Positions 29,326-40,057 of a DNA stretch of 48,130 nt are shown here, piece after piece (within the stretch, counting starts at the first letter, position 1; each line of letters opens with the position of its first letter). Source of the DNA: Chthoniobacteraceae bacterium (lineage in GTDB: Bacteria; Verrucomicrobiota; Verrucomicrobiia; Chthoniobacterales; Chthoniobacteraceae). The DNA lies in contig JANNWY010000182.1 of assembly GCA_031409335.1 (NCBI GenBank), positions 1 through 48,130 of the forward strand, read 5' to 3'. The notes below the pieces were generated by a model that searched no databases, was not told the origin of the DNA, and saw nothing but the letters and a program-made list of their open reading frames with translations. The position numbers and the translations under genes were made by a program.

Positions 29326-29405
29326 GTGGCTTGCCGCTCCAGCGGCGAGCGGGGAAGGTGGCGGGCCTGCCGTTTGTCCCGCTCGCCGCTGGAGCGGCAA
29401 GCCAC
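29326..29405. repeat. Perfect 28-bp-arm palindrome (REP-like)
   Basis: gtggcttgccgctccagcggcgagcggg ... cccgctcgccgctggagcggcaagccac. Confidence 0.85.
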
Positions 29406-30009: not shown

Positions 30010-30425
30010 TTACATCAACTGATACGCGTCCACATCCACGGTGACGATGACGTCCTCGGGAAACGGCAGCTTGTCCAGCACACCGCGCAAATGCCGGCTC
30101 AGTTTCAAAATGGCCTTCGTCCGCAGCATGAGTTGGAAGCGGAAATTGCCGTGCGATTTTTCCAGTGGGGCGGGCGCGGGTTCGCTGAGGGTGGTGCCGG
30201 GGGGGGGGAGGGATTCGGCGAGGCGGCGGTGCAGGGTTTCGGTGGAGAAGCTGGCGCGGGCTTCGTGCGGGGAGCGGATGTGGATGATGATGAGATGCGT
30301 GAAGGGCGGGTAGTCCCACTGTTTGCGGAACTCGATTTCCTGCTCCCAGAAGCCCTCGAAATCGTGATGTCGCGCGAACTGAATCGCAGGACTGAACGGC
30401 GTGAAACTTTGCACGAAGACCTCGC
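30010..30425 (-). pseudogene. priA: Orphan duplicate of the priA 3' end (left direct repeat)
   Basis: Encodes EVFVQSFTPFSP...DVDAYQLM, nearly identical to the C-terminus of priA at 37135-37547; similarity stops abruptly after gaagacctcgc. Confidence 0.92.
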
Positions 30426-30760
30426 TCGCGAATTTGGCTGAGATCGACATGCCACTCGTCTTCCGCGTTTACGGCGACGGAGCGTGGGCGAAATCACCGT
30501 TCTCTGTCTCGCCTGACCGTACCGCGTTTTGATAGGAGGAAACGTGTCGCCAACCGCGCCTGCCACCGTGCAGCGCGGGGCGACGGTCCTCTGTGAGCAC
30601 GACACCGAAACCGAAAAAGCCCGGAACTGCCCGCAAGAAAGCGCCGCCCCGTGCGGACGCCGACAGGGTTCCCGAGAAAGGCTTGTTTTCCAGAGGGCGA
30701 AATGGCGGAAGCCGAAGTGCGCGCTTGCGTTTGGCAAGACAACGCGGTGCCATTCGCGCC

Positions 30761-33700
30761 ATGCCCGAGCCTGCGGAGACCTTTCGCTTCGATGTCGCCT
30801 TCTCCTTCGCTGGCCCGCATCGCGAGAAGGTGCGGACTATCGCCGAACTGGTCGCTGCGAAGCTTGGTCGTGAGCGGGTGTTCTATGACGAGTGGTACGA
30901 ACACGAAATCCTCGGCGACGAAACGGGCGCGCTGCTGCAACGCTTCTATCACGAGCGAAGTCTCATGGTCGTCGCGGACCTCTCGGACGAATACGCTGGG
31001 CGTCCATGGTGCCGGGCTGAAGCAAGCGCGATCCGGGCGCTTCGTTTTGATTTGGATCCCGCGCGCGATGAGACCGGCCGCCTTCGTCTGCTCAATGTGA
31101 AATTGGGTGATGGAAGCGTGCCGGGAGTTTTCACGACCACGGCCTATCTCGAGGGCATCGCCAAGACCGCCGAGCAATGCGCCGAACTCATCCTCAAGCG
31201 CCACGCCCTGCTTGTGCAGCGCATGAGCGCGCCAGCGCTTCTCGCAAGCGAATCTCAAGCACCTGCGCCTCATGCAGCGCGCGGAATGGACATTGGGAAG
31301 GCTCCCGCCAACACGACATTGCCCCTCGAATGGCTTCGCCGCACCGGCGTTTATGTTGCCCACTTTACCGCCTATTTCATCGGGGGCGCTGCGCTCGGGG
31401 AGGTGGTTAAAAAAATCTTTCTATCTGGCGGCGGCGACACTATGCCCGGCCCCGCCATCTGGTTTGCTGCCGCCGCGCTCGCCCTTTCGCTCTTCTTCCT
31501 CCTCGCCTTCAACATCATCCCCCCCATCCTTCATGCACGCGAGAAGCGGCTCAAGCCCGTTCCCGACGACCGCATCGACCGGGAATACTTCACCACTAAG
31601 CCGCGCGAACATGACCCGCACGGCTTCTTCGCCCACGGCTACGATGCCTTCCTGGAGTGGGCCGCGGTCCCGGTGGCTTCCATCCTGCACCTCACCGGGC
31701 TCTCCGGTTCCGGCAAATCGTCCCTCCTCAGCGCCTTCCTCGCCCCGCGACTCGCGGAGGCGAAGCCGCGCACGCATCTCGTCATCCTGCGCTCCTATAC
31801 CGACCCGCTCGTGGCCATGAAAGAGGCGCTCGTGCAGTTCTGGAAGAAGAAGCCCGACGACTACGACTCGCTGCCTCCGCTCGAAGCGCTCCGCCGTGCC
31901 GCCGCCAGGCTCCCCGCCGGGGAAAGACTGCTCGTTGCGTTCGACCAGTTTGAGGAGTTCTTCATCCTGCGCGCCACCGCCACCGAGGGCACCGCAGGCG
32001 GCGCGCCGCTCATCGTCCCCATTGCGGACCTGGCACCACTGCGCGAGTTTTTCAACGACTTCCGCGCAGAACCTCCGCATAACGCGACTCTGCTTCTTTC
32101 GTACCGAGAGGACCACCGCGGTCTCATGGAGCCGCTAGGGCTGCCGACGCGGCGCGAAGGCGAAGACTGGCGCTCCGTCGAGCCGCTGGGTTTCGCCGAG
32201 GCGGCAGACTTCCTCGGCAAATGTCCCGGTCTCCCCATTCCGGAGGAGCGGATGAGCAGTGTCCTACGTGAGGCCGCCCGGCAAGAAGGGGGCCACGTCG
32301 TCATGCGACCCATCGTGGCCAACATCCTCGGCATCGTCCTCGCCCGCATGGCCGGCCATCCCACGCTCTGGCGCCGGTCGGGCGACCTACTGCGCAGCTA
32401 CGTGCGCGACTGCCTCGCGGGTCCATTGGAAAAGGAGCGCGCCGCCGCCTTGCGCGAGCTGCTCACCGATTTCCACACCGCCCGGCCTCGCGCCGTTGAA
32501 GAGATCGCCGGCAAGACCGGCCTCGCCCCCTCGACGCTTAACGATCAGTTCGGCCATCTCGAGCTCGCCGGCCTCGTCCGCTGCCTGAATGACGAGGAAG
32601 GCACCCCCGCCCGCCGCGTCTGGCAGATAGCGCACGACTTCATCGCCACCCTCACCGAGCGCGTCCTCGATGCCATGCACCGCACCCTCTGGCACGCCGT
32701 CAAGCCGTGGCTCGGTCCGGCCTCTTTTGCGCTTTGGTTGCTCGTCGGTCTCGGCGCTTGGCCTTGGGTGGAAAAGCATCGTGCCATCGCCGAACTTGCC
32801 AATGTGGGGCTGAGTTGGAACGAAAAGGAGCATGAAGTCTCTGTCAGCGATTGGGGACAGGAGCATCTTCGATCTCTTGATGGAACTCAGCGAGCGCTTC
32901 GGCACCTTCGCCCCAGGACGCTCACTCTCATTGGCTGCCGCGCCTTGCACGATGTACATGGCCTCAGCGGACTAACTTCCTTAGAACGGCTCGACTTTAG
33001 CTTCTGCGACGCCTTGCAGAACGTCGATGGCCTTGCAGGGTTGAGTTCTCTTCTGGCGCTCAACCTTAGCCAATGCTCGAAATTGGAGAGTGTGGATGGT
33101 CTCACGGGGTTGAATTCCCTTTTGGCGCTCGACCTTAGCAACTGCTCGGCATTAAAGAGTGTGGATTTCCTGAACGAGCTGACCTCCCTACGGTTGCTTA
33201 AACTCATCCGCTGTTCAGCCTTGGAAAATGTGGATGTCCTCAAGACGCTGACATCCCTTCAGTTGCTCTACCTCAGCCGGTGCTCGGCCTTGAAAAGTGT
33301 AGATATATTCAAGAGGATGACTTTGCTCCAGACGTTAGATCTCACAGATTGCGACGCCTTGCAGAATGTGAATGGCCTCGAGAATCTGATTTCTCTCCAG
33401 GTGCTCGACCTCAGCGAATGCGACACCCTACAGAATGTGGATGATCTCAAGAGATTGACTTCGCTCAAAGCGCTCAACCTCAAAGGCTGTGACGCCTTGG
33501 GGAACGTGAATGGGATCGAGAATCTGACTTCCCTCCAAGTGCTCGACCTCAGCAACTGTGGCGCCTTACAGAATATCGCTGGCCTTGAGAAGCTATCTTC
33601 TCTCCGGTCCCTTGATCTCAGTTCCTGCCGCAAATTAAAGAATGTCGATGACCTCCAGGGCCTCACTTCGCTAGGTTTGCTCAAACTCGAAGACTGCACT

Positions 33701-34111
33701 GTTCTTCGAAATGTCGATATGCTTAGGGGACTGACTTCCCTGCGAGGGCTTGATCTTAGCGGCTGCAACGCCTTACTGGATGTGCATGGTCTTCAGGGCC
33801 TGACTTCCCTCCGGGCGCTTGATCTGCACAACTGTGGTGCATTGCAGGATATCAATGGCCTCAAGGGACTGGAGAAGTTAGAATGGCTTTCTCTTTTCGG
33901 TGACCAGAGGATTCCCTTGGAGTCGTCCACCATGCTCGGCAAGAGCTTGCCTAAATGCCGGATCATTATCCGCTCCGAGGATGCATCAAATAGCCCTATC
34001 CACCTAATGTATATCAAAGAAATCGCGGAGCCGTTCTTTCCACCACAGCAATTCCTGCGCGATTTTGCCTATGCAATGCGGCGCTCTCTTGGCAAGAGCA
34101 AGTCCAACTGA
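30761..34111 (+). CDS. TIR-2TM-STAND NTPase (nSTAND1-like)-TM-LRR protein (alternative GTG start 30593)
   Basis: TIR FDVAFSFAG..R, VFYDEW, WCRAE; Walker A GLSGSGKS; Walker B LLVAFDQFEEFF; IAHD; TM; ~15 LRRs. Confidence 0.88.
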   Translation: MPEPAETFRFDVAFSFAGPHREKVRTIAELVAAKLGRERVFYDEWYEHEILGDETGALLQRFYHERSLMVVADLSDEYAGRPWCRAEASAIRALRFDLDPARDETGRLRLLNVKLGDGSVPGVFTTTAYLEGIAKTAEQCAELILKRHALLVQRMSAPALLASESQAPAPHAARGMDIGKAPANTTLPLEWLRRTGVYVAHFTAYFIGGAALGEVVKKIFLSGGGDTMPGPAIWFAAAALALSLFFLLAFNIIPPILHAREKRLKPVPDDRIDREYFTTKPREHDPHGFFAHGYDAFLEWAAVPVASILHLTGLSGSGKSSLLSAFLAPRLAEAKPRTHLVILRSYTDPLVAMKEALVQFWKKKPDDYDSLPPLEALRRAAARLPAGERLLVAFDQFEEFFILRATATEGTAGGAPLIVPIADLAPLREFFNDFRAEPPHNATLLLSYREDHRGLMEPLGLPTRREGEDWRSVEPLGFAEAADFLGKCPGLPIPEERMSSVLREAARQEGGHVVMRPIVANILGIVLARMAGHPTLWRRSGDLLRSYVRDCLAGPLEKERAAALRELLTDFHTARPRAVEEIAGKTGLAPSTLNDQFGHLELAGLVRCLNDEEGTPARRVWQIAHDFIATLTERVLDAMHRTLWHAVKPWLGPASFALWLLVGLGAWPWVEKHRAIAELANVGLSWNEKEHEVSVSDWGQEHLRSLDGTQRALRHLRPRTLTLIGCRALHDVHGLSGLTSLERLDFSFCDALQNVDGLAGLSSLLALNLSQCSKLESVDGLTGLNSLLALDLSNCSALKSVDFLNELTSLRLLKLIRCSALENVDVLKTLTSLQLLYLSRCSALKSVDIFKRMTLLQTLDLTDCDALQNVNGLENLISLQVLDLSECDTLQNVDDLKRLTSLKALNLKGCDALGNVNGIENLTSLQVLDLSNCGALQNIAGLEKLSSLRSLDLSSCRKLKNVDDLQGLTSLGLLKLEDCTVLRNVDMLRGLTSLRGLDLSGCNALLDVHGLQGLTSLRALDLHNCGALQDINGLKGLEKLEWLSLFGDQRIPLESSTMLGKSLPKCRIIIRSEDASNSPIHLMYIKEIAEPFFPPQQFLRDFAYAMRRSLGKSKSN
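32915..33905 (+). repeat. Coding tandem array of 23-aa leucine-rich repeats (69-bp period)
   Basis: 14 Cys-containing units of consensus L.gLtSL..LdLs.C.aL.nvdg plus a final unit without Cys. Confidence 0.9.
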
Positions 34112-34140
34112 AAGTTTTAACTGTAACTAGAGGCAACGCC

Positions 34141-34637
34141 GTGCTGTGGCAGGATACCCTGAAAATCGAGCCGACCCTCAGCGGGAAGATGCTCACTGCG
34201 GCGAGCGACCTTCCGCCGGAGAGCGTCTGGGGCATCAGCATCAAGGCCGTGGGCGGGTTCCTGACCGGCTTCAAGGCCAATGCTACGGGCGAACGCGTGG
34301 CTGGCGACGACAAAGCGCCCGACATCATCGAGGCGGCGGCGCTCAACGCGAACCTGCTGGCGCTGCGTCCGCGCGACATCGTGGTGCTGCGCGGCTACCG
34401 GCTCGCTTTCGATCCCAGCAAGCCGGATGAAGGGGTGTATCTCGATCCCGTGTCGGGTGGCGCGCGGTGCGCGTGGCCGTGGCCAATCTCCGCAAGAAAG
34501 GGGAGAAGGAGACGGAGTTCCAATGGCCCGAAGGGCTGCCGGCCAATACCCAGTATCGGGTGCGTCTCGAATGCCGTCGGCGCGGCGGCGGCATCCTGCG
34601 CCGCGACCGCTGGGATACGCCGGTGAAGACGCCGTAA
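34141..34637 (+). pseudogene. 5'-truncated, frameshifted HU-like/DUF4469 (Ig-fold) DNA-binding protein remnant
   Basis: LRGYRLAFDPSKPDEGVYL; after a -1 shift near 34463 continues AVRVAV...FQWPEGLPANTQYRVRLECRRRGGGILRRDRWDTPVKTP*. Confidence 0.55.
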
Positions 34638-34752
34638 GGGGGTGCGGTCGGCGACCGCAGGGGTTTGTGGTAAGGGACCGCCGCGGTTTGCGGTCATGCG
34701 CCACAAGGGGCTGCGGTAAGGCACAGCGAGGGATTGCGGTCGCTGGGAGCGA
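34638..34752. repeat. Five degenerate 23-bp tandem units with core TGCGGT-N5-ACCGCA
   Basis: TG(C/T)GGT at 34643, 34666, 34689, 34712 and 34735: exact 23-bp spacing. Confidence 0.8.
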
Positions 34753-34757
34753 TTGCT

Positions 34758-37130
34758 ATGGCTTTACCAATGCCAACGAAAAAGCCAATGCGGGAGGAAG
34801 AGGCGCTACGCAGGATTCAAGAGGTGCGTAGCAAGCCAGAGGCGATGCTTGACCTTGTTGGGCTTGGTTTGAATGTGCTGCCAAAGTCTATCGGCCAGTT
34901 GGCGCGACTGCGATGGCTTTACCTCGATGACAATCAACTGCACACGCTGCCGGACTTTATCGGCCAGTTGACGCAACTGCAAGCGCTCGGTCTCAGCGAC
35001 AATCAATTAAGTGCACTGCCGGAGTGGATGCGCCGTCTCACACAGCTCAAGATGCTCTACTTGCACGGCAACGATGCGCTCGGCATCCCACCGGAAATCC
35101 TCGGGCCAACTTGGCAGGAGGTTGGAGGCGACCGAACGACACCCGCCCGCCCGCAGGACATCATCGATTACTACTTCAAGACCCGCGAGGCGGCGCGTCC
35201 GCTCAATGAAGTGAAGCTCCTGCTCGTGGGACGCGGCGGGGCGGGCAAAAGCTCGATCCGCGACCGGCTGGTTCACGATAGCTTCGTTCCCGGCAAGAAG
35301 GAGACGCCGGGGATCGACATCGCGCATTGGCCGCTCGACTGCGGCGGCGAGCGCGTCCACGTCCACCTCTGGGATTTCGCCGGGCAGGAGATCACCCATG
35401 CCACCCACCAGTTCTTCCTTACCGAGCGCAGCGTCTATGTGCTGGTGCTCGATGCGCGCGCCGATACGCAGGAGGCCGACGCCGAATACTGGCTGCGGCT
35501 GATCGCGGCCTTTGGCAAGGAGTCGCCGATCCTCGTGCTGCTCAATAAGTTTGATGAGAAGCCCTTTGCCATCGACGAACATCTGCTCAGCGAGCGCCAC
35601 CCGGCGATCCGCACTTTCATCCCGACAGACTGCAAGACGAAGCGCGGCCTTTCGGAACTGCGCACCGTGCTCACCAAGCTGCTGACGGTGTGGGAGCCGG
35701 TCCACGAGCTATTCCCTGCCGCCTGGGCGCGCGCGAAGGAAAATTACAGCGAGCCGAAGCAGCCCTACATCGCCTTCAGCGCCTTTCGCACGAAGTGCGC
35801 CGAGTGTGGCATCGCCGATGAAGCGGAGCAGGAGCGGCTCGCGCGCATCCTGCATGCGCTCGGCATTATCCTGCACTATGGGGACGATCCGCGGCTGCGG
35901 CACAATGCGGTGCTCGATCCGCATTGGGTGACGAATGGCGTCTATAAGCTGCTCCGGCTCAAGGAAGGCCCCGCGAGCGACGGCACGCTGACGGTGGAGG
36001 AAGCGGCGCGCGCTCTGCCGGGGGAGCCGCGCGAGATGGTGGAATACCTCATCGGCCTCATGCGCCGCTTCGAGCTCTGCTTTGCCGTCGATGCCGACGA
36101 ACAGCGCTGGCTGGTGCCGCAATTGCTCAGCCGTTTCCAGCCCGCGCTCGAAGCCGGGTGGCAGACGGCCGAGGCAACGCGGCTGCGATACCGCTACGAT
36201 GTGCTGACCGAGGGGCTGCTGGCGCGCTTCATCGTGCGCACGCATCCGCTGAGCGAAGGGCAGCCGCGCTGGCGTTACGGCGTGGTGCTCGAAATGGAAG
36301 GCGCCCGCGCGCTCGTCCGCGCCGACCGCACACGCAACGAAGTGACCGTCGCCGCGATCGGCGACCCCGAGGCGCGGTTGCGGCTGGTGAAGGTGGTGCG
36401 CGAGCATTTTGCGCACATCAACGCGGAGTTGCCGGGGCTCAACGCGCGGGAACAGCTCGAACCGGAGGGACATCCCGGCGCTTTCAAGGCCGTGAAGGTG
36501 CTCGAAGCGGACGAACGCAAAGGCGGTGAATCGACGATCGAGACCGACGACGGCACGATCGCGATCGACAAGACGCGCGAACTCAACCGCATCTCCGCCC
36601 CGGCGGCGCGCGATCCGGCGCAGCCGCGGGTGAGGCTGTTCGTGAGCTATTCGCACAAGAACGCCCGGTTGTTGGATGTCTTCCGCACCAACCTCGACCT
36701 GCTAAAGGCGGACGGCCTCGCAGACTCGTGGACCGACCGGCTGATTCCGGTGTCTGCCGAGTGGGACGATGAGATTCGCCGCGAGATCGAGGAGGCCGAC
36801 ATCATCGTGCTACTGGTGAGCACGGCTTTCCTCGCTTCCGGCTACATTCGCAGTGTCGAACTATTGCGCGCCATCCAACGCCGCGTCGCCCGCGAGGCGG
36901 AGATCGCCATCGTGCTTCTCGAACCCAATGTGCAGTGGAAAGGCGAGCGCACCATCCACGACAAGGCCACCGGCAAGGATGTGAAGTTCAAACTGGATGC
37001 CTGGCAGGCGACGCTGCCCGATGGCCGCTGCGTGCGCGATTTTTCCACCCAGCAGATCGGCTTCAACGCCGTCGAAGCCGCGCTGCGCAAGCTGATCGCG
37101 AGCGTGCTGGCAAAGCGGCGGTCCGCGTAG
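34758..37130 (+). CDS. Roco protein: LRR-Roc GTPase-COR-TIR (alternative start 34788)
   Basis: EEALRRI and LP..IGQL LRRs; GRGGAGKS, WDFAGQE, NKFD; COR LDPHWVTNGVY; TIR LFVSYSH..EADIIVLLVS..FLAS.YI..VE. Confidence 0.92.
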   Translation: MALPMPTKKPMREEEALRRIQEVRSKPEAMLDLVGLGLNVLPKSIGQLARLRWLYLDDNQLHTLPDFIGQLTQLQALGLSDNQLSALPEWMRRLTQLKMLYLHGNDALGIPPEILGPTWQEVGGDRTTPARPQDIIDYYFKTREAARPLNEVKLLLVGRGGAGKSSIRDRLVHDSFVPGKKETPGIDIAHWPLDCGGERVHVHLWDFAGQEITHATHQFFLTERSVYVLVLDARADTQEADAEYWLRLIAAFGKESPILVLLNKFDEKPFAIDEHLLSERHPAIRTFIPTDCKTKRGLSELRTVLTKLLTVWEPVHELFPAAWARAKENYSEPKQPYIAFSAFRTKCAECGIADEAEQERLARILHALGIILHYGDDPRLRHNAVLDPHWVTNGVYKLLRLKEGPASDGTLTVEEAARALPGEPREMVEYLIGLMRRFELCFAVDADEQRWLVPQLLSRFQPALEAGWQTAEATRLRYRYDVLTEGLLARFIVRTHPLSEGQPRWRYGVVLEMEGARALVRADRTRNEVTVAAIGDPEARLRLVKVVREHFAHINAELPGLNAREQLEPEGHPGAFKAVKVLEADERKGGESTIETDDGTIAIDKTRELNRISAPAARDPAQPRVRLFVSYSHKNARLLDVFRTNLDLLKADGLADSWTDRLIPVSAEWDDEIRREIEEADIIVLLVSTAFLASGYIRSVELLRAIQRRVAREAEIAIVLLEPNVQWKGERTIHDKATGKDVKFKLDAWQATLPDGRCVRDFSTQQIGFNAVEAALRKLIASVLAKRRSA

Positions 37131-37134
37131 CCGC

Positions 37135-39405
37135 TCACATGAGCTGATAGGCATCCACGTCCACCGTCACCACGACATCCTCGGGGAATGGCAGCTTGTC
37201 GAGCACGGCACGGAGGTGGCGGCTGAGTTTCAGGATCGCACGGGTGCGGAGCATGAGTTGGAAGCGGAAGTTGCCGTGGGATTTTTCCAGTGGGGCGGGC
37301 GCGGGTTCGCTGAGGGTGGTGCCGGGCGGGAGGGATTCGGCGAGGCGGCGGTGCAGGGTTTCGGTGGAAAAACTGGCGCGGGCCTCGTGCGGGGAGCGGA
37401 TGTGGATGATGATGAGATGGGTGAAGGGCGGGTAGTCCCACTGTTTGCGGAACTCGATTTCCTGTTCCCAAAATCCCTCGAAATCGTGATGCCGCGCGAA
37501 CTGGATGGCGGGGCTGAACGGCGTGAAACTTTGCACGAAGACCTCGCCTTCCACGTCGCCGCGGCCGGCGCGTCCGGCGACTTGGGTGAGGAGCTGGAAG
37601 GTGCGCTCGCCGGCGCGGAAATCGGGGAGGTGCAGGGCGAGGTCGGCGTTGATGATTCCGACGAGGGTGACGTTGGGAAAGTGCAGGCCTTTCGCGATCA
37701 TTTGCGTGCCGACGAGGATGTCGATCTTGCCGGTGCGAAAGGCGCCGAGCGTTTCGCGATAGGAATCGCGCCGCGTCATCGCGTCGGCGTCCATGCGTTT
37801 CACGACGGCTTTGGGAAAGAGTTTGCTGACGGCGTCCTCGACTTTTTCGGTGCCCGTGCCGCTGTAGCGGATCGCGGGATCTTTGCACTCGGGACACTTC
37901 GATGGCGCGACGGCTGCGTAGCCGCAGATGTGGCAGACGATGCGCGCGGCGGTGCGGTGGAAGGTGAGCGAGACGGAGCAGTTCGGACACGTGCAGACAT
38001 GGCCGCAGGTCGGGCAGATGAGCGAGGTCGAAAAGCCGCGGCGGTTCAGGAATAGGATCGTCTGCTCCTTCTTTTCGAGCCGGACGTTGATCGCCGTGAT
38101 GAGTTTCTCCGAAAGGATCGCGGACCTTTTCACCGACTCCATCCGCAGGTCGATGATGCGGATGAGCGGCATCTTTTTGTCGTCCACGCGCAGCTTCATG
38201 TTCAGCAGTTCGTATTTGCCGAGCGTCGCGTTGTGGTAGCTCTCCATCGACGGCGTCGCGCTGCCGAGCAGGCACGCGCATTTCTCCATGCTCGCGCGCA
38301 GCACCGCGATGTCGCGCGCGTGGTAGCGCGGCGTTTCCTCCTGCTTGTAGGAATTCTCGTGCTCTTCATCGACAACGATGAGCCCGAGATTTCCGCACGG
38401 CGCAAAGATCGCCGACCGCGCGCCGATGACGATACGCGCTCGGCCATCGCGAATCTTATGCCACTCATCGTGCCGCTCGCCTTCGCTGAGATGCGAGTGC
38501 AGCACGGCGACTTCGTGTTGCGTGGCCGCGAAGCGCGATTTGAAACGCTCGACGGTCTGCGGCGTGAGCGAAATTTCCGGCACGAGCATGATCGCCGACT
38601 GCCCGCGCGCGACGACGAGCTGGATCGCTTGCAGGTAAATCTCCGTCTTCCCGCTGCCGGTCACGCCGTGGAGGAGCATCGGGCGCGGAGTCGCATGGGT
38701 CCCATCGCTCCCATGAGTCCGATGGGACGAAGGGGACTGATGGGACCAATGCCCGATCGCCGCGCGCACACGCTCGAACACGGCGATTTGCTCTTCGTTC
38801 AAAGCCAGCGGAGCTGCCGCGACGAATGTCTCCCGCTCGAACGGATCGCGCTCCACTTTTTCATCCTCGGAAATGAGCAGCCCCTTTTTCACCAGCGCAT
38901 TGATGACTTGATGATTCGCATCGCACTGCTGCGCGAGTTCGGCAACGGCGACCGCCTTTCCCGCCGCGGCGAGAAACTCGACCACGCCCGCTTGCAGCGG
39001 CGCTTTCCCGCGCAGCCCCTCGATTTCCTCCGCGCCGACTTCCCGCGCGAGCCGCGCAAAGAGCTGCTTCTTATGCCCGATCTGCGCCTTGCGAATCACA
39101 TTCGGCAGCACACTCCGCAACGCCGCCTCCAGCGGGCAGCAGTAGTAATCCGCGATCCATTTCCCAAGCTGGATGAGCAGCGGACTCAGGATCGGTTCCG
39201 CGCTCACCACCTCCGCGATCGGCTTCACGCCGCGCGCATCGGTCGTGTCGCGCAGCTCCAAAATCGTCCCCAGCATCGTCCGCGTCCGCACCGGCACGCG
39301 CACGCGCGAGCCGACCTGCAATTGCGCCGCCACCGGCTCGGGAAGCTCGTAATCAAAGGCATTCCCGCCGGAGTCATCGACCATCACGAGGGCGAAACGA
39401 GGCAT
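37135..39405 (-). CDS. priA: Primosomal protein N' (replication restart helicase)
   Basis: GVTGSGKT, LVPEISLT, DEEH, four CxxC pairs, GTQMIAKG, QVAGRAGR. Confidence 0.97.
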   Translation of the reverse strand: MPRFALVMVDDSGGNAFDYELPEPVAAQLQVGSRVRVPVRTRTMLGTILELRDTTDARGVKPIAEVVSAEPILSPLLIQLGKWIADYYCCPLEAALRSVLPNVIRKAQIGHKKQLFARLAREVGAEEIEGLRGKAPLQAGVVEFLAAAGKAVAVAELAQQCDANHQVINALVKKGLLISEDEKVERDPFERETFVAAAPLALNEEQIAVFERVRAAIGHWSHQSPSSHRTHGSDGTHATPRPMLLHGVTGSGKTEIYLQAIQLVVARGQSAIMLVPEISLTPQTVERFKSRFAATQHEVAVLHSHLSEGERHDEWHKIRDGRARIVIGARSAIFAPCGNLGLIVVDEEHENSYKQEETPRYHARDIAVLRASMEKCACLLGSATPSMESYHNATLGKYELLNMKLRVDDKKMPLIRIIDLRMESVKRSAILSEKLITAINVRLEKKEQTILFLNRRGFSTSLICPTCGHVCTCPNCSVSLTFHRTAARIVCHICGYAAVAPSKCPECKDPAIRYSGTGTEKVEDAVSKLFPKAVVKRMDADAMTRRDSYRETLGAFRTGKIDILVGTQMIAKGLHFPNVTLVGIINADLALHLPDFRAGERTFQLLTQVAGRAGRGDVEGEVFVQSFTPFSPAIQFARHHDFEGFWEQEIEFRKQWDYPPFTHLIIIHIRSPHEARASFSTETLHRRLAESLPPGTTLSEPAPAPLEKSHGNFRFQLMLRTRAILKLSRHLRAVLDKLPFPEDVVVTVDVDAYQLM
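38694..38752. repeat. Short-repeat palindromic insert, in frame within priA
   Basis: tcccat x2 facing atggga x2; encodes low-complexity HWSHQSPSSHRTHGSDGTH just before Walker A. Confidence 0.6.
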
Positions 39406-39484: not shown

Positions 39485-40057
39485 ATGATCGCCGTCCTCG
39501 AAGACCCCGCCATCCGCGCCCGTCTCACCATGACGACGGTCGAGCAATATCACCGAATGTATGAACTCGGAGTGATCGCGGAAAACGTGGAACTGATTCG
39601 CGGCAGCCTCATCGAAAAAATGTCCCAATCTCCCCTGCACGCTTCGATCGTGGAATTGCTTCGCGAACACTTGGTGAACCTGCTGGTCGGGAAATCGATC
39701 GTGCGGCAGGAAAAGCCGCTCACGCTCGCCGATTCCGAACCCGAACCCGATTTAGCCGTCGTACATGGCACCCGACGCGAATTTCTTTCCGGTCATCCGA
39801 CGACGGCGGAACTGGTCGTCGAGGTTTCCGTGAGCAGTGAACGCCTTGATCGCGCGAAGCTGGAAATCTACGCCGAGGCCGGGGTGCGCGAATGCTGGCT
39901 GCTGCTGGCCGAGGAGCGGATCATCGAACGGCATACCGATCCGCAAGCAGGCGCCTATCGGCAGGTGGAACGCGCGACGTTTCCAGCAACGCTGGAGAGC
40001 ACGGTCATCCCCGGTTTGAAGATCCCGCCGAATGGGTTGTTCCCGGAAACACCATGA
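39485..40057 (+). CDS. Uma2-family PD-(D/E)xK endonuclease
   Basis: TVEQYHRM...VELIRG, SEPEPDLAVV, LVVEVS, DR.K..YAEAGV. Confidence 0.9.
   Translation: MIAVLEDPAIRARLTMTTVEQYHRMYELGVIAENVELIRGSLIEKMSQSPLHASIVELLREHLVNLLVGKSIVRQEKPLTLADSEPEPDLAVVHGTRREFLSGHPTTAELVVEVSVSSERLDRAKLEIYAEAGVRECWLLLAEERIIERHTDPQAGAYRQVERATFPATLESTVIPGLKIPPNGLFPETP

Follow-up and report, generated by a model that had tools for sequence, protein, structure and literature searches.

Several prokaryotic systems resemble the receptor described here. The nSTAND1 proteins of counter-invader systems (PF20703; PMC8195603) join variable N-terminal effectors or EADs (TIR, trypsin, DrHyd, caspase) to variable C-terminal sensors. 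In the Fig. 2 source data of that study (Kaur 2021), nSTAND1+TM is recorded 461 times and TIR+nSTAND1+TM 16 times, with a beta-propeller or beta-helix among the 12 occurrences listed for the latter, TM+nSTAND1 twice and LRR 0 times; in the main-text passages, periplasmic sensing by nSTAND1 is undiscussed ('periplasm', 0 occurrences). Bacterial NACHT proteins (Kibby et al., 10.1101/2022.07.19.500537) also display an effector-NTPase-sensor layout, in some cases with an LRR sensor (bNACHT16), are autoactivated by His mutations and include a TM-bearing subset for which intramembrane or periplasmic signal recognition has been proposed. In the DGR-diversified STAND-CLec proteins (10.1101/2023.09.22.558884), a C-terminal sensor is again combined with an N-terminal TIR or peptidase, and one DGR3 target is predicted to be periplasmic. 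Finally, Avs proteins (Avs2, PMC13601566) possess an NBD-HD1-WHD switch, and their oligomerisation gathers the N-terminal effectors. According to the parts of these sources that we covered, the mechanisms described for NLR-like bacterial sensors consist in the detection of phage proteins inside the cell.

We analyzed a window of 48,130 nucleotides from a Chthoniobacteraceae bacterium (contig JANNWY010000182.1), where one open frame encodes a protein, hereafter P0001, in which a TIR is followed by two hydrophobic helices, an nSTAND1 NTPase (NBD-HD1-winged helix), one more hydrophobic helix and 15 LRRs (Table 1). The TIR, the STAND-type NTPase, the three hydrophobic segments and the LRRs, which a preliminary description had read from the DNA, were all located within the gene. 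Compared with the nSTAND1 counter-invader systems, the family of P0001 has a TM hairpin between effector and NTPase and mostly an LRR sensor, and most of its members lack both an effector and a partner. P0001 belongs to the nSTAND1 clade, unlike bacterial NACHTs, whose TM class, as presented in the portions of that work considered, has multiple TM regions and not a single TM followed by an LRR ectodomain. STAND-CLec proteins sense through a C-type lectin fold mutated by a DGR, LRRs being unmentioned in the sections considered, and no reverse transcriptase was seen among the neighbour ORFs of our family loci. Avs proteins are soluble, with TPR sensors and intracellular phage ligands, whereas P0001 has no PADLOC match (2023 library; 0 families at E 0.001 for P0001, P0002 and P0043).

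The comparison extends to eukaryotic receptors. Plant TIR-NB-LRR receptors (RPS4, RPP1), which are soluble NB-ARC proteins, share the TIR-NTPase-LRR order, and Glu87 of P0001 aligns weakly with the WCxxE Glu of RPS4 (E 0.37); on the other hand, P0001 has no NB-ARC match and carries three hydrophobic segments. Toll-like receptors, which are N-out, single-pass and devoid of an NTPase, have LRRs outside and a TIR inside, as predicted for P0001, but in P0001 the order is reversed and an NTPase stands in between. The portrait of P0001 as a receptor both NLR-like and TLR-like is thus sustained for the TIR-NTPase-LRR order, the likeness to TLRs being one of layout alone. Both likenesses are convergent because the TIR joined the family recently. 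As for the possibility that the architecture is already characterised, the effector-nSTAND1-TM-repeat scheme is indeed catalogued (Kaur 2021) and TM-bearing STANDs have already been proposed to sense in the periplasm, but the LRR form is absent from the Fig. 2 source data of Kaur 2021. Moreover, the portions of the literature that we covered yielded no LRR ectodomain, N-terminal membrane hairpin or effector-less majority for nSTAND1, and the NACHT supplement could list TM+LRR forms. For STAND proteins sensing across the membrane, we found proposals and no experiment.

Table 1. Features of the P0001 gene and of its surroundings (window positions).
Feature	Position	Strand	Basis or remark
TIR-2TM-nSTAND1-TM-LRR gene (P0001)	30761..34111	+	open frame ATG 30761 to TGA 34111, 1116 aa
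TIR domain, residues 8-157	30782..31231	+	AlphaFold model, Foldseek, alignment of relatives
Predicted TM1, about 195-216	31343..31408	+	weak: KD 1.18, has His and Glu
Predicted TM2, 233-254, then basic cluster	31457..31522	+	hydropathy, charge bias
nSTAND1 nucleotide-binding domain (NBD)	31583..32185	+	Pfam, model, family conservation
Walker A	31697-31720	+	within nSTAND1 NBD
Walker B DQFEE	31943-31957	+	within nSTAND1 NBD
Conserved Arg449, probable sensor 1	32105-32107	+	within nSTAND1 NBD
Helical domain 1 (HD1); RPIxxN motif at 32306-32323	32186..32416	+	model, family conservation
Winged-helix domain, invariant HDF at its end (32633-32641)	32423..32656	+	Pfam, model, conservation
Predicted TM3, 649-668	32705..32764	+	hydropathy, model
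Ectodomain N-terminal cap	32765..32911	+	weak likeness to the cap seen in stand-alone LRR proteins with a membrane anchor
15 cysteine-type LRRs of 23 aa	32912..33946	+	sequence, DNA repeats with 69-nt period
Orphan priA 3' end, left cassette edge	30012..30425	-	88% identity to tail of full priA
3' tail of full-length priA, right cassette edge	37135..37547	-	sequence comparison
Small ORF, DUF4469-like (lead only)	34141..34626	+	no Pfam or NCBIfam match
LRR-Roc-COR-TIR gene, AP-GTPase type, same cassette	34734..37130	+	Pfam

The ATG was preferred as start because the TIR relatives start at the same position, and an in-frame upstream GTG at 30593 was rejected. One contig of run X1 covers 30396-34634 with 0 differences, so that a misassembly of the locus is unsupported, this cover being non-independent since the window may derive from X1 itself. 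In Pfam, nSTAND1 was matched above the curated cut-off (E 4.8e-12, 46.6 bits vs 27.1), together with a winged helix (562-609) and several LRR families, whereas TIR_2 remained below its cut-off (E 0.0033). NCBIfam gave sub-threshold LRR matches only. No paralogue of the TIR or STAND part was found in the same genome, where two weak LRR matches were seen.

The AlphaFold model of the TIR (pLDDT 87.7) displays a TIR fold, about 40 top Foldseek matches being TIR domains apart from the one at rank 41; a sequence search of solved structures gave weak matches only. The putative catalytic Glu proposed earlier within WCRAE (residues 83-87, nt 31007) is Glu87 (31019-31021), invariant in 37/37 aligned rows of TIR relatives; P0001 thus has the conserved helix C Glu expected of an enzymatic TIR. 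Because the scaffold TIRs MyD88 and MAL appear among the top Foldseek matches alongside the NADase AbTir, the fold does not establish catalysis. The TIR of P0001 likely destroys NAD+.

The model of the core (pLDDT 85, pTM 0.75) matches ORC/Cdc6, archaeal ATPases, plant resistosomes, CED-4, Apaf-1 and NLRP3 (TM ~0.3-0.37). It possesses the NBD-HD1-winged helix fold of STAND proteins with Walker A (GLSGSGKS, residue 313, nt 31697), Walker B (DQFEEFF, residue 395, nt 31943) and the sensor Arg, and this constant core goes with a variable N-terminal effector and a variable C-terminal sensor. Walker A residues S315, G316, G318, K319 and S321, as well as DQFE, R449 and HDF, are invariant or nearly so across 154 non-redundant family members. 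The STAND-type NTPase announced from these two motifs is therefore confirmed. We take the HDF of the winged helix to be the likely counterpart of the NLR MHD motif.

Taken alone, P0001 has a single clear TM helix, the second one, because its best 19-residue Kyte-Doolittle (KD) means are 1.18 (198-216), 2.41 (235-253) and 1.32 (646-664) while its soluble HD1 helix (513-531) reaches 1.72. Helices 1 and 3 are assigned to the membrane because of family-wide hydropathy: KD is at least 1.5 at TM1/TM2/TM3 in 61/70/68 of 71 members and in 75/94/88 of 95 members, with TM1 medians of 1.86 and 1.78, the TM1 and TM3 of P0001 ranking among the weakest of the family. Net charge is higher before TM3 than after it in 58/71 and 86/95 members, and a family median of 5 Lys+Arg per 15 residues after TM2 marks the cytoplasmic side. 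An odd TM count between NTPase and sensor and a positive-inside bias are hence observed family-wide and are marginal for P0001 alone. Among the three membrane segments first reported, the second stands by itself, and the first and third, weak in P0001, are backed by the family. As a prediction, the topology proposed for P0001 is supported, that of a three-pass inner-membrane receptor with TIR and NTPase in the cytoplasm and LRRs in the periplasm. In TM1 of P0001, moreover, Glu214 occupies a site taken by Leu, Ala or Phe in the family, and Ser243 stands in the hairpin in place of a Pro found in 68% of the family. One could assume from these substitutions that P0001 is a recent chimera in decay, no longer inserting or signalling properly, all the more as TM1 is more hydrophobic in the close relative P0149. 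This is highly improbable, as the 3.3-kb frame is intact, every NTPase motif and Glu87 are retained and the same fusion is kept in P0149 (82% identity).

The array announced as about 15 LRRs of the L-x-L-x-x-C-x-x-L type was recovered as 14 repeats at 741-1062, 13 of them with Cys, plus one at 718; G+C is 0.52 in the LRR part vs 0.68 in the NTPase part. Genomes of the host family encode stand-alone proteins that combine LRRs of this type with a basic stretch, a single hydrophobic helix and a comparable cap. A TM3+cap profile detected such anchored proteins at E 0.055-0.9 among 263 segments, which is too weak to count alone, and gave no match with four TM-less LRR proteins. Could the LRRs of P0001 be cytoplasmic instead, TM3 (or TM1) not crossing the membrane and the protein being a merely tethered, intracellular TIR-NB-LRR-like sensor? 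The weak TM1 and TM3 would fit, the same cysteine LRRs are present in TIR proteins lacking an evident TM segment (P0092, P0093), the characterised Avs sensors recognise intracellular phage proteins (PMC13601566), and periplasmic LRRs would expose at least 13 cysteines to an oxidising compartment. We nevertheless find this quite unlikely. TM3 is strongly hydrophobic in the relatives counted above, with basic residues ahead of it, the stand-alone proteins carry these LRRs after a single anchor helix, and LRR cysteines occupy a buried ladder position. Elsewhere, ankyrin and HEAT-like C-termini are frequent in the cytoplasm, an observation that we count against periplasmic sensing.

We propose, with roughly even confidence, that P0001 is a three-pass receptor in which sensing of an invader outside the cytoplasm would activate the TIR, whose effector action would be to consume NAD+. 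The sequence and models provide the parts, namely a TIR fold with Glu87, a STAND fold with all nucleotide motifs and an LRR array, and family statistics predict a TM1-TM2 hairpin, a cytoplasmic TIR and NTPase, and a TM3 that takes the LRRs into the periplasm. In the model, TM3 lies inside one continuous helix (626-681) starting at the HDF motif; a ligand bound by the LRRs could thus move TM3 and free the nucleotide lock. By analogy with Avs and plant NLRs, ATP-bound protomers would then oligomerise with their N-termini gathered, and the clustered TIRs would cleave NAD+ or produce a nucleotide signal, leading to cell arrest or death. Candidate ligands are a phage component (tail or injection), a predator and a contact-dependent toxin.

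The family of 2TM-nSTAND1-TM-ectodomain proteins comprises at least 154 non-redundant members. A recognisable N-terminal effector or adaptor is present in 14/154 (TIR/SEFIR 8, DUF4062 2, trypsin 2, SMEK 1, EAD11 1), and 136/154 have no long N-terminal extension. These fused N-terminal domains are of kinds usually encountered in conflict systems of the cytoplasm. The C-terminal part is LRR-like in 108/154 by a loose motif count, other C-termini being ankyrin, WD40, FGE and metallophosphoesterase. The TIR is a module grafted recently onto a receptor chassis usually devoid of it, and it appears from quick trees to have joined the family on several independent occasions. It cannot be the general output of the family because about 9 in 10 members lack a fused effector, and the idea of the TIR as the core of the receptor has to be abandoned. 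Members mostly without an enzyme would therefore need another output. Such an output could be the N-terminal two-helix hairpin itself, acting as the family's own effector in the manner of CBASS 2TM effectors or of the N-terminal helices in plant resistosomes: the STAND oligomer would cluster the hairpins to form a membrane lesion or channel, the TIR being a second output. The hairpin is indeed found where an effector would sit in practically every member and contains recurrent small residues and two prolines. Furthermore, no coupled upstream effector gene of the SIR2-TIR or kinase-TIR partner type was found, 17 effector probes matched outside the gene at 1/47 loci, and no TIR or SIR2 gene emerged when flanking ORFs (111 and 37) were scanned with Pfam, although this survey is weakened by duplicates among the loci and by short upstream DNA (<1 kb) at 9/47 of them. 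On the other hand, conservation of the hairpin is not above that of TM3 (mean entropy 2.82 and 2.58 vs 2.59 bits), it bears no conserved charged residue, and an effector might be encoded at another genomic site. Altogether, a pore-forming hairpin as the family's effector seems rather unlikely. A bolder hypothesis, about which we are just as reserved, would make the whole family self-contained transmembrane receptors, in which a signal read by the LRRs in the periplasm would pass along a single helix to the nucleotide lock of the cytoplasmic STAND switch and the oligomer would turn the hairpin into a killing channel, TIR, protease and other enzymes being repeatedly grafted options. If true, this would be a bacterial resistosome triggered from outside, in a widespread NLR-like family.

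Returning to a TIR-armed receptor of invaders, the conflict-type role suggested at the outset is supported at the sequence level by the swapped N-terminal effectors and by a patchy, stand-alone distribution (core in 2/150 host-family genomes and 0/400 phylum genomes). Evident defence islands are missing around family members, as are a conserved neighbour and a conserved regulator gene, and the PADLOC library brought no further support. Most of the 111 neighbour ORFs have housekeeping functions or no match; mobile-element genes occur at 5/32 loci. The P0001 gene itself lies within a 7-kb cassette bounded by duplicated priA 3' ends. No empty priA-trpG joint was found among those listed, and trpG is absent from the 1.5-kb priA flanks in 11 relatives. 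priA was rejected as a general hotspot, only 6/131 other host-family genomes with a match having at least 2, some of them frameshift-like. The neighbouring LRR-Roc-COR-TIR gene fits the prokaryotic AP-GTPase (LRR-Roc-COR-effector) class (PMC8195603) but is a separate gene with no conserved link to the STAND family. That two TIR genes share strand and cassette raises the question of a non-immune signalling receptor for envelope state, cell contact or kin recognition, whose TIR would serve as scaffold or generate a signal, perhaps on behalf of this neighbour. The effector-less majority, the missing match in a defence library and the rank of MyD88 and MAL among fold matches would agree with it. 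We hold it to be very unlikely, because no such gene was seen beside relatives, its TIR is unmatched at 47 loci, the family has no conserved regulator neighbour, and a role in conflict accords better with the patchy distribution and the conflict-type fusions.

Members of this family, with and without a fused enzyme, are single-gene test cases, and the invariant HDF at the start of the helix running into TM3 is an obvious handle for autoactivation. Two questions thereby become testable: whether a periplasmic event can flip a STAND switch, and which output is used by the members lacking an effector, most of the family. The TIR module is mobile as well, being fused elsewhere to NACHT, TPR, caspase, FGE, bDLD3 and others, and the TIR-NTPase-LRR order has arisen several times in bacteria via module swapping.

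The P0001 gene is genuine and intact, and the motifs cited in the preliminary description were all found where it had placed them. HMM scanning of the 1116-residue product recovered Pfam nSTAND1 (E 4.8e-12), a winged helix and LRR families, with TIR_2 below threshold, and the approximately 15 LRRs announced were counted as 15, of 23 residues each. In AlphaFold models, residues 1-160 adopt a TIR fold (pLDDT 87.7; Foldseek matches to MyD88, AbTir, MAL, RPS4 and SPARTA) and residues 185-700 an NBD-HD1-winged-helix fold (pLDDT 85.2; structural matches to ORC/Cdc6, archaeal ATPases, resistosomes, CED-4 and Apaf-1). Glu87 is invariant in the 37 aligned TIR sequences. The architecture proposed at first sight holds up, with the TIR as an accessory part. 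The host probably belongs to Chthoniobacteraceae (Verrucomicrobiota), judging by the NCBI label of a protein in a genome of the same family.

P0001 is a fusion protein. Residues 1-700 used as query retrieved 42 other proteins: 26 cover the post-TIR region at 44-62% identity, none of them with a TIR, 15 cover the TIR alone (56-82%) and join it to NACHT/TPR, membrane bundles, caspase or a PTS domain, and one is a distant core relative. Additional relatives of this TIR carry bDLD3, caspase, FGE or NACHT. The junction between the TIR and the predicted TM1-TM2 hairpin is shared with a fragment, P0149 (82% identity). P0001 nests among TIR-less proteins in quick trees of 32 selected cores and of 74 rows alike; in the former, five TIR-bearing rows require four changes and a single clade of TIR-bearing cores is rejected (p-AU 1.6e-57). 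Since the TIRs also fall in different subfamilies, the simplest reading is that the nSTAND1 membrane family acquired TIR repeatedly.

The first set of this family comprised 92 sequences, reduced to 75 by removing 11 duplicates, 5 short cores and 1 sequence without a regex Walker A; 71 of the 75 were parsed, two of which, N-terminally truncated, were misparsed. The second set began with 140 new representatives; 119 of them fitted the core profile, and parsing succeeded for 95. The 164 pooled rows became 154 once those more than 90% alike were removed. Named members belong to Planctomycetota, Verrucomicrobiota, Acidobacteriota and Pseudomonadota. Across the 154 rows, Walker A, DQFE, Arg449 and HDF show little or no variation, which makes the nSTAND1 switch look intact. 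Walker A lies inside the first 200 residues in 136 members, leaving no space for an enzyme ahead of the hairpin. An N-terminal extension is present in 18, with no Pfam match in four and a recognisable domain in 14: TIR_2/SEFIR in eight (one behind a ParA-like domain, and that of P0001 below threshold), DUF4062 and trypsin in two each, SMEK and EAD11 in one each. The eight TIR-bearing members end in LRRs, except one ending in ankyrins. By a loose motif count, 108 of the 154 have an LRR-like C-terminal domain; the non-LRR ones are ankyrin, WD40, FGE-sulfatase, metallophosphoesterase or unmatched.

Several individual proteins deserve mention. A calcineurin-like metallophosphoesterase occupies the predicted outward position in two family members (L069:2560-5259 and P0233), and the frame ends early or is split into two ORFs at three loci (L003, L011, L075), by decay or assembly error. 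The P0001-type TIR module is joined to an unannotated multi-pass membrane domain in P0028, P0030, P0040 and P0041, and to HPr-like and PTS IIA domains in P0032 (precomputed Pfam). Another host-family genome encodes an independent TIR-2TM-nSTAND1-TM-LRR fusion (L152:739-3906), whose TIR subfamily differs from that of P0001.

We judged topology from hydropathy (best 19-residue Kyte-Doolittle mean) and charge. The mean was at least 1.5 for TM1, TM2 and TM3 in 61, 70 and 68 of 71 members of the first set, and in 75, 94 and 88 of 95 members of the second. A median of 5 Lys+Arg lies downstream of TM2 in parsed members, and net charge is higher before than after TM3 in 58/71 and 86/95 members. On this hydropathy and charge bias, the family is predicted to place its NTPase in the cytoplasm and its C-terminal domain outside, with the N-terminus inside via TM1, in keeping with the kind of effectors fused there. 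However, TM1 (1.18) and TM3 (1.32) of P0001 rank among the family's weakest, and P0001-type LRRs also exist in TIR proteins without evident TM; both points count against this topology. In its favour, stand-alone proteins of the host family carry this LRR type after a similar cap and a single anchor, basic and then hydrophobic (seen by eye at 4 of 13 loci), with weak profile support. Such anchored cysteine-LRR proteins (L153, L154, L155, L158) are expanded in some host-family genera, up to 6-7 matches per genome, and may serve as decoys or as a reservoir of ectodomains.

A coupled partner effector gene was sought beside family members, with a negative outcome. At 47 loci (9 with less than 1 kb of upstream DNA, some duplicates), 17 effector probes matched outside the family gene at one locus only, where a trypsin-like gene lies at a distance of 3.4 kb from the gene's start, and 37 further upstream ORFs contained no effector gene. 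No neighbour was conserved among 111 flanking ORFs from 32 loci, the matched ORFs being mostly housekeeping; five of these loci have an integrase, resolvase or transposase. The core was found in 2 of 150 other host-family genomes and, with a single-protein query, in 0 of 400 phylum genomes.

In the AlphaFold model, a single helix begins at the HDF motif (626), passes through TM3 and ends at residue 681. Changes of the His are reported to autoactivate bacterial NACHT proteins (bioRxiv 10.1101/2022.07.19.500537). By analogy with these changes and with the MHD motif of plant NLRs, a ligand bound on the outside would shift the HDF-TM3 helix, nucleotide would be freed and the NTPase would oligomerise. 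The oligomer would cluster hairpins and TIRs, as oligomerisation brings Avs N-termini together (PMC13601566), and the output of P0001 would likely be NAD+ cleavage by its TIR. We give this whole chain an even chance. The boldest reading, that in the effector-less majority the hairpin itself acts as a channel, seems unlikely, and the hairpin's lack of conserved polar residues counts against it.

nSTAND1 is defined in PMC8195603, whose Fig. 2 source data, as available, list nSTAND1+TM 461 times, TIR+nSTAND1+TM 16 times and TM+nSTAND1 twice, but LRR 0 times, unlike the present family with its LRR ectodomain. The NACHT preprint (bioRxiv 10.1101/2022.07.19.500537) includes an LRR member, and proposes TM-bearing members as periplasmic or intramembrane sensors; in a DGR preprint (bioRxiv 10.1101/2023.09.22.558884), a STAND protein is predicted to carry a lectin sensor in the periplasm. 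The available parts of PMC7159879 and two of its supplement files hold nothing on the 2TM-nSTAND1-TM-LRR architecture, and we found no paper on this family in literature searches that covered few subscription journals. In the ESM Atlas there is an nSTAND1+LRR cluster, named automatically, with 53 members. The LRR ectodomain, the membrane hairpin and the partner-less majority appear new against these sources; the predicted class itself is known, and the scheme of the preliminary description was partly in print.

In the window, the P0001 gene, the DUF4469-like ORF and the LRR-Roc-COR-TIR gene follow one another in a cassette within which no integrase was found.

Features in and around the cassette
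Feature	Position	Remark
Perfect 28-bp inverted repeat, 24-nt spacer	29326-29405	between GSDH/cytochrome gene and trpG
priA 3' end, two copies	30012-30425 (orphan); 37135-37547 (full gene's tail)	flank 7-kb cassette
P0001 gene	30761-34111 (+)	
DUF4469-like ORF, 161 aa	34141-34626	atlas score 0.92; perhaps a fragment
LRR-Roc-COR-TIR gene	34734-37130	prokaryotic AP-GTPase class, as described
Uma2-family putative endonuclease	39485-40057	adjoins priA start

The two priA ends are 88% identical over 414 bases (95% in the 5' part, 81% in the 3' part). A same-genus priA is closer to the orphan copy than to the full gene's tail (90.8 vs 88.8%), which suggests that the cassette came together with a new priA tail; this difference is small, and a second same-genus genome leans the opposite way (81.3 vs 83.5%). 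The TIR of the LRR-Roc-COR-TIR gene matches the PADLOC ThsB model (E 1e-20). The window DNA is present in freshwater-sediment metagenomes of a single study, and sequencing run X2 departs from it at 34218 and 34221, inside the DUF4469-like ORF. Extra priA 3' pieces also occur in three other genomes (G087, G107, G010).
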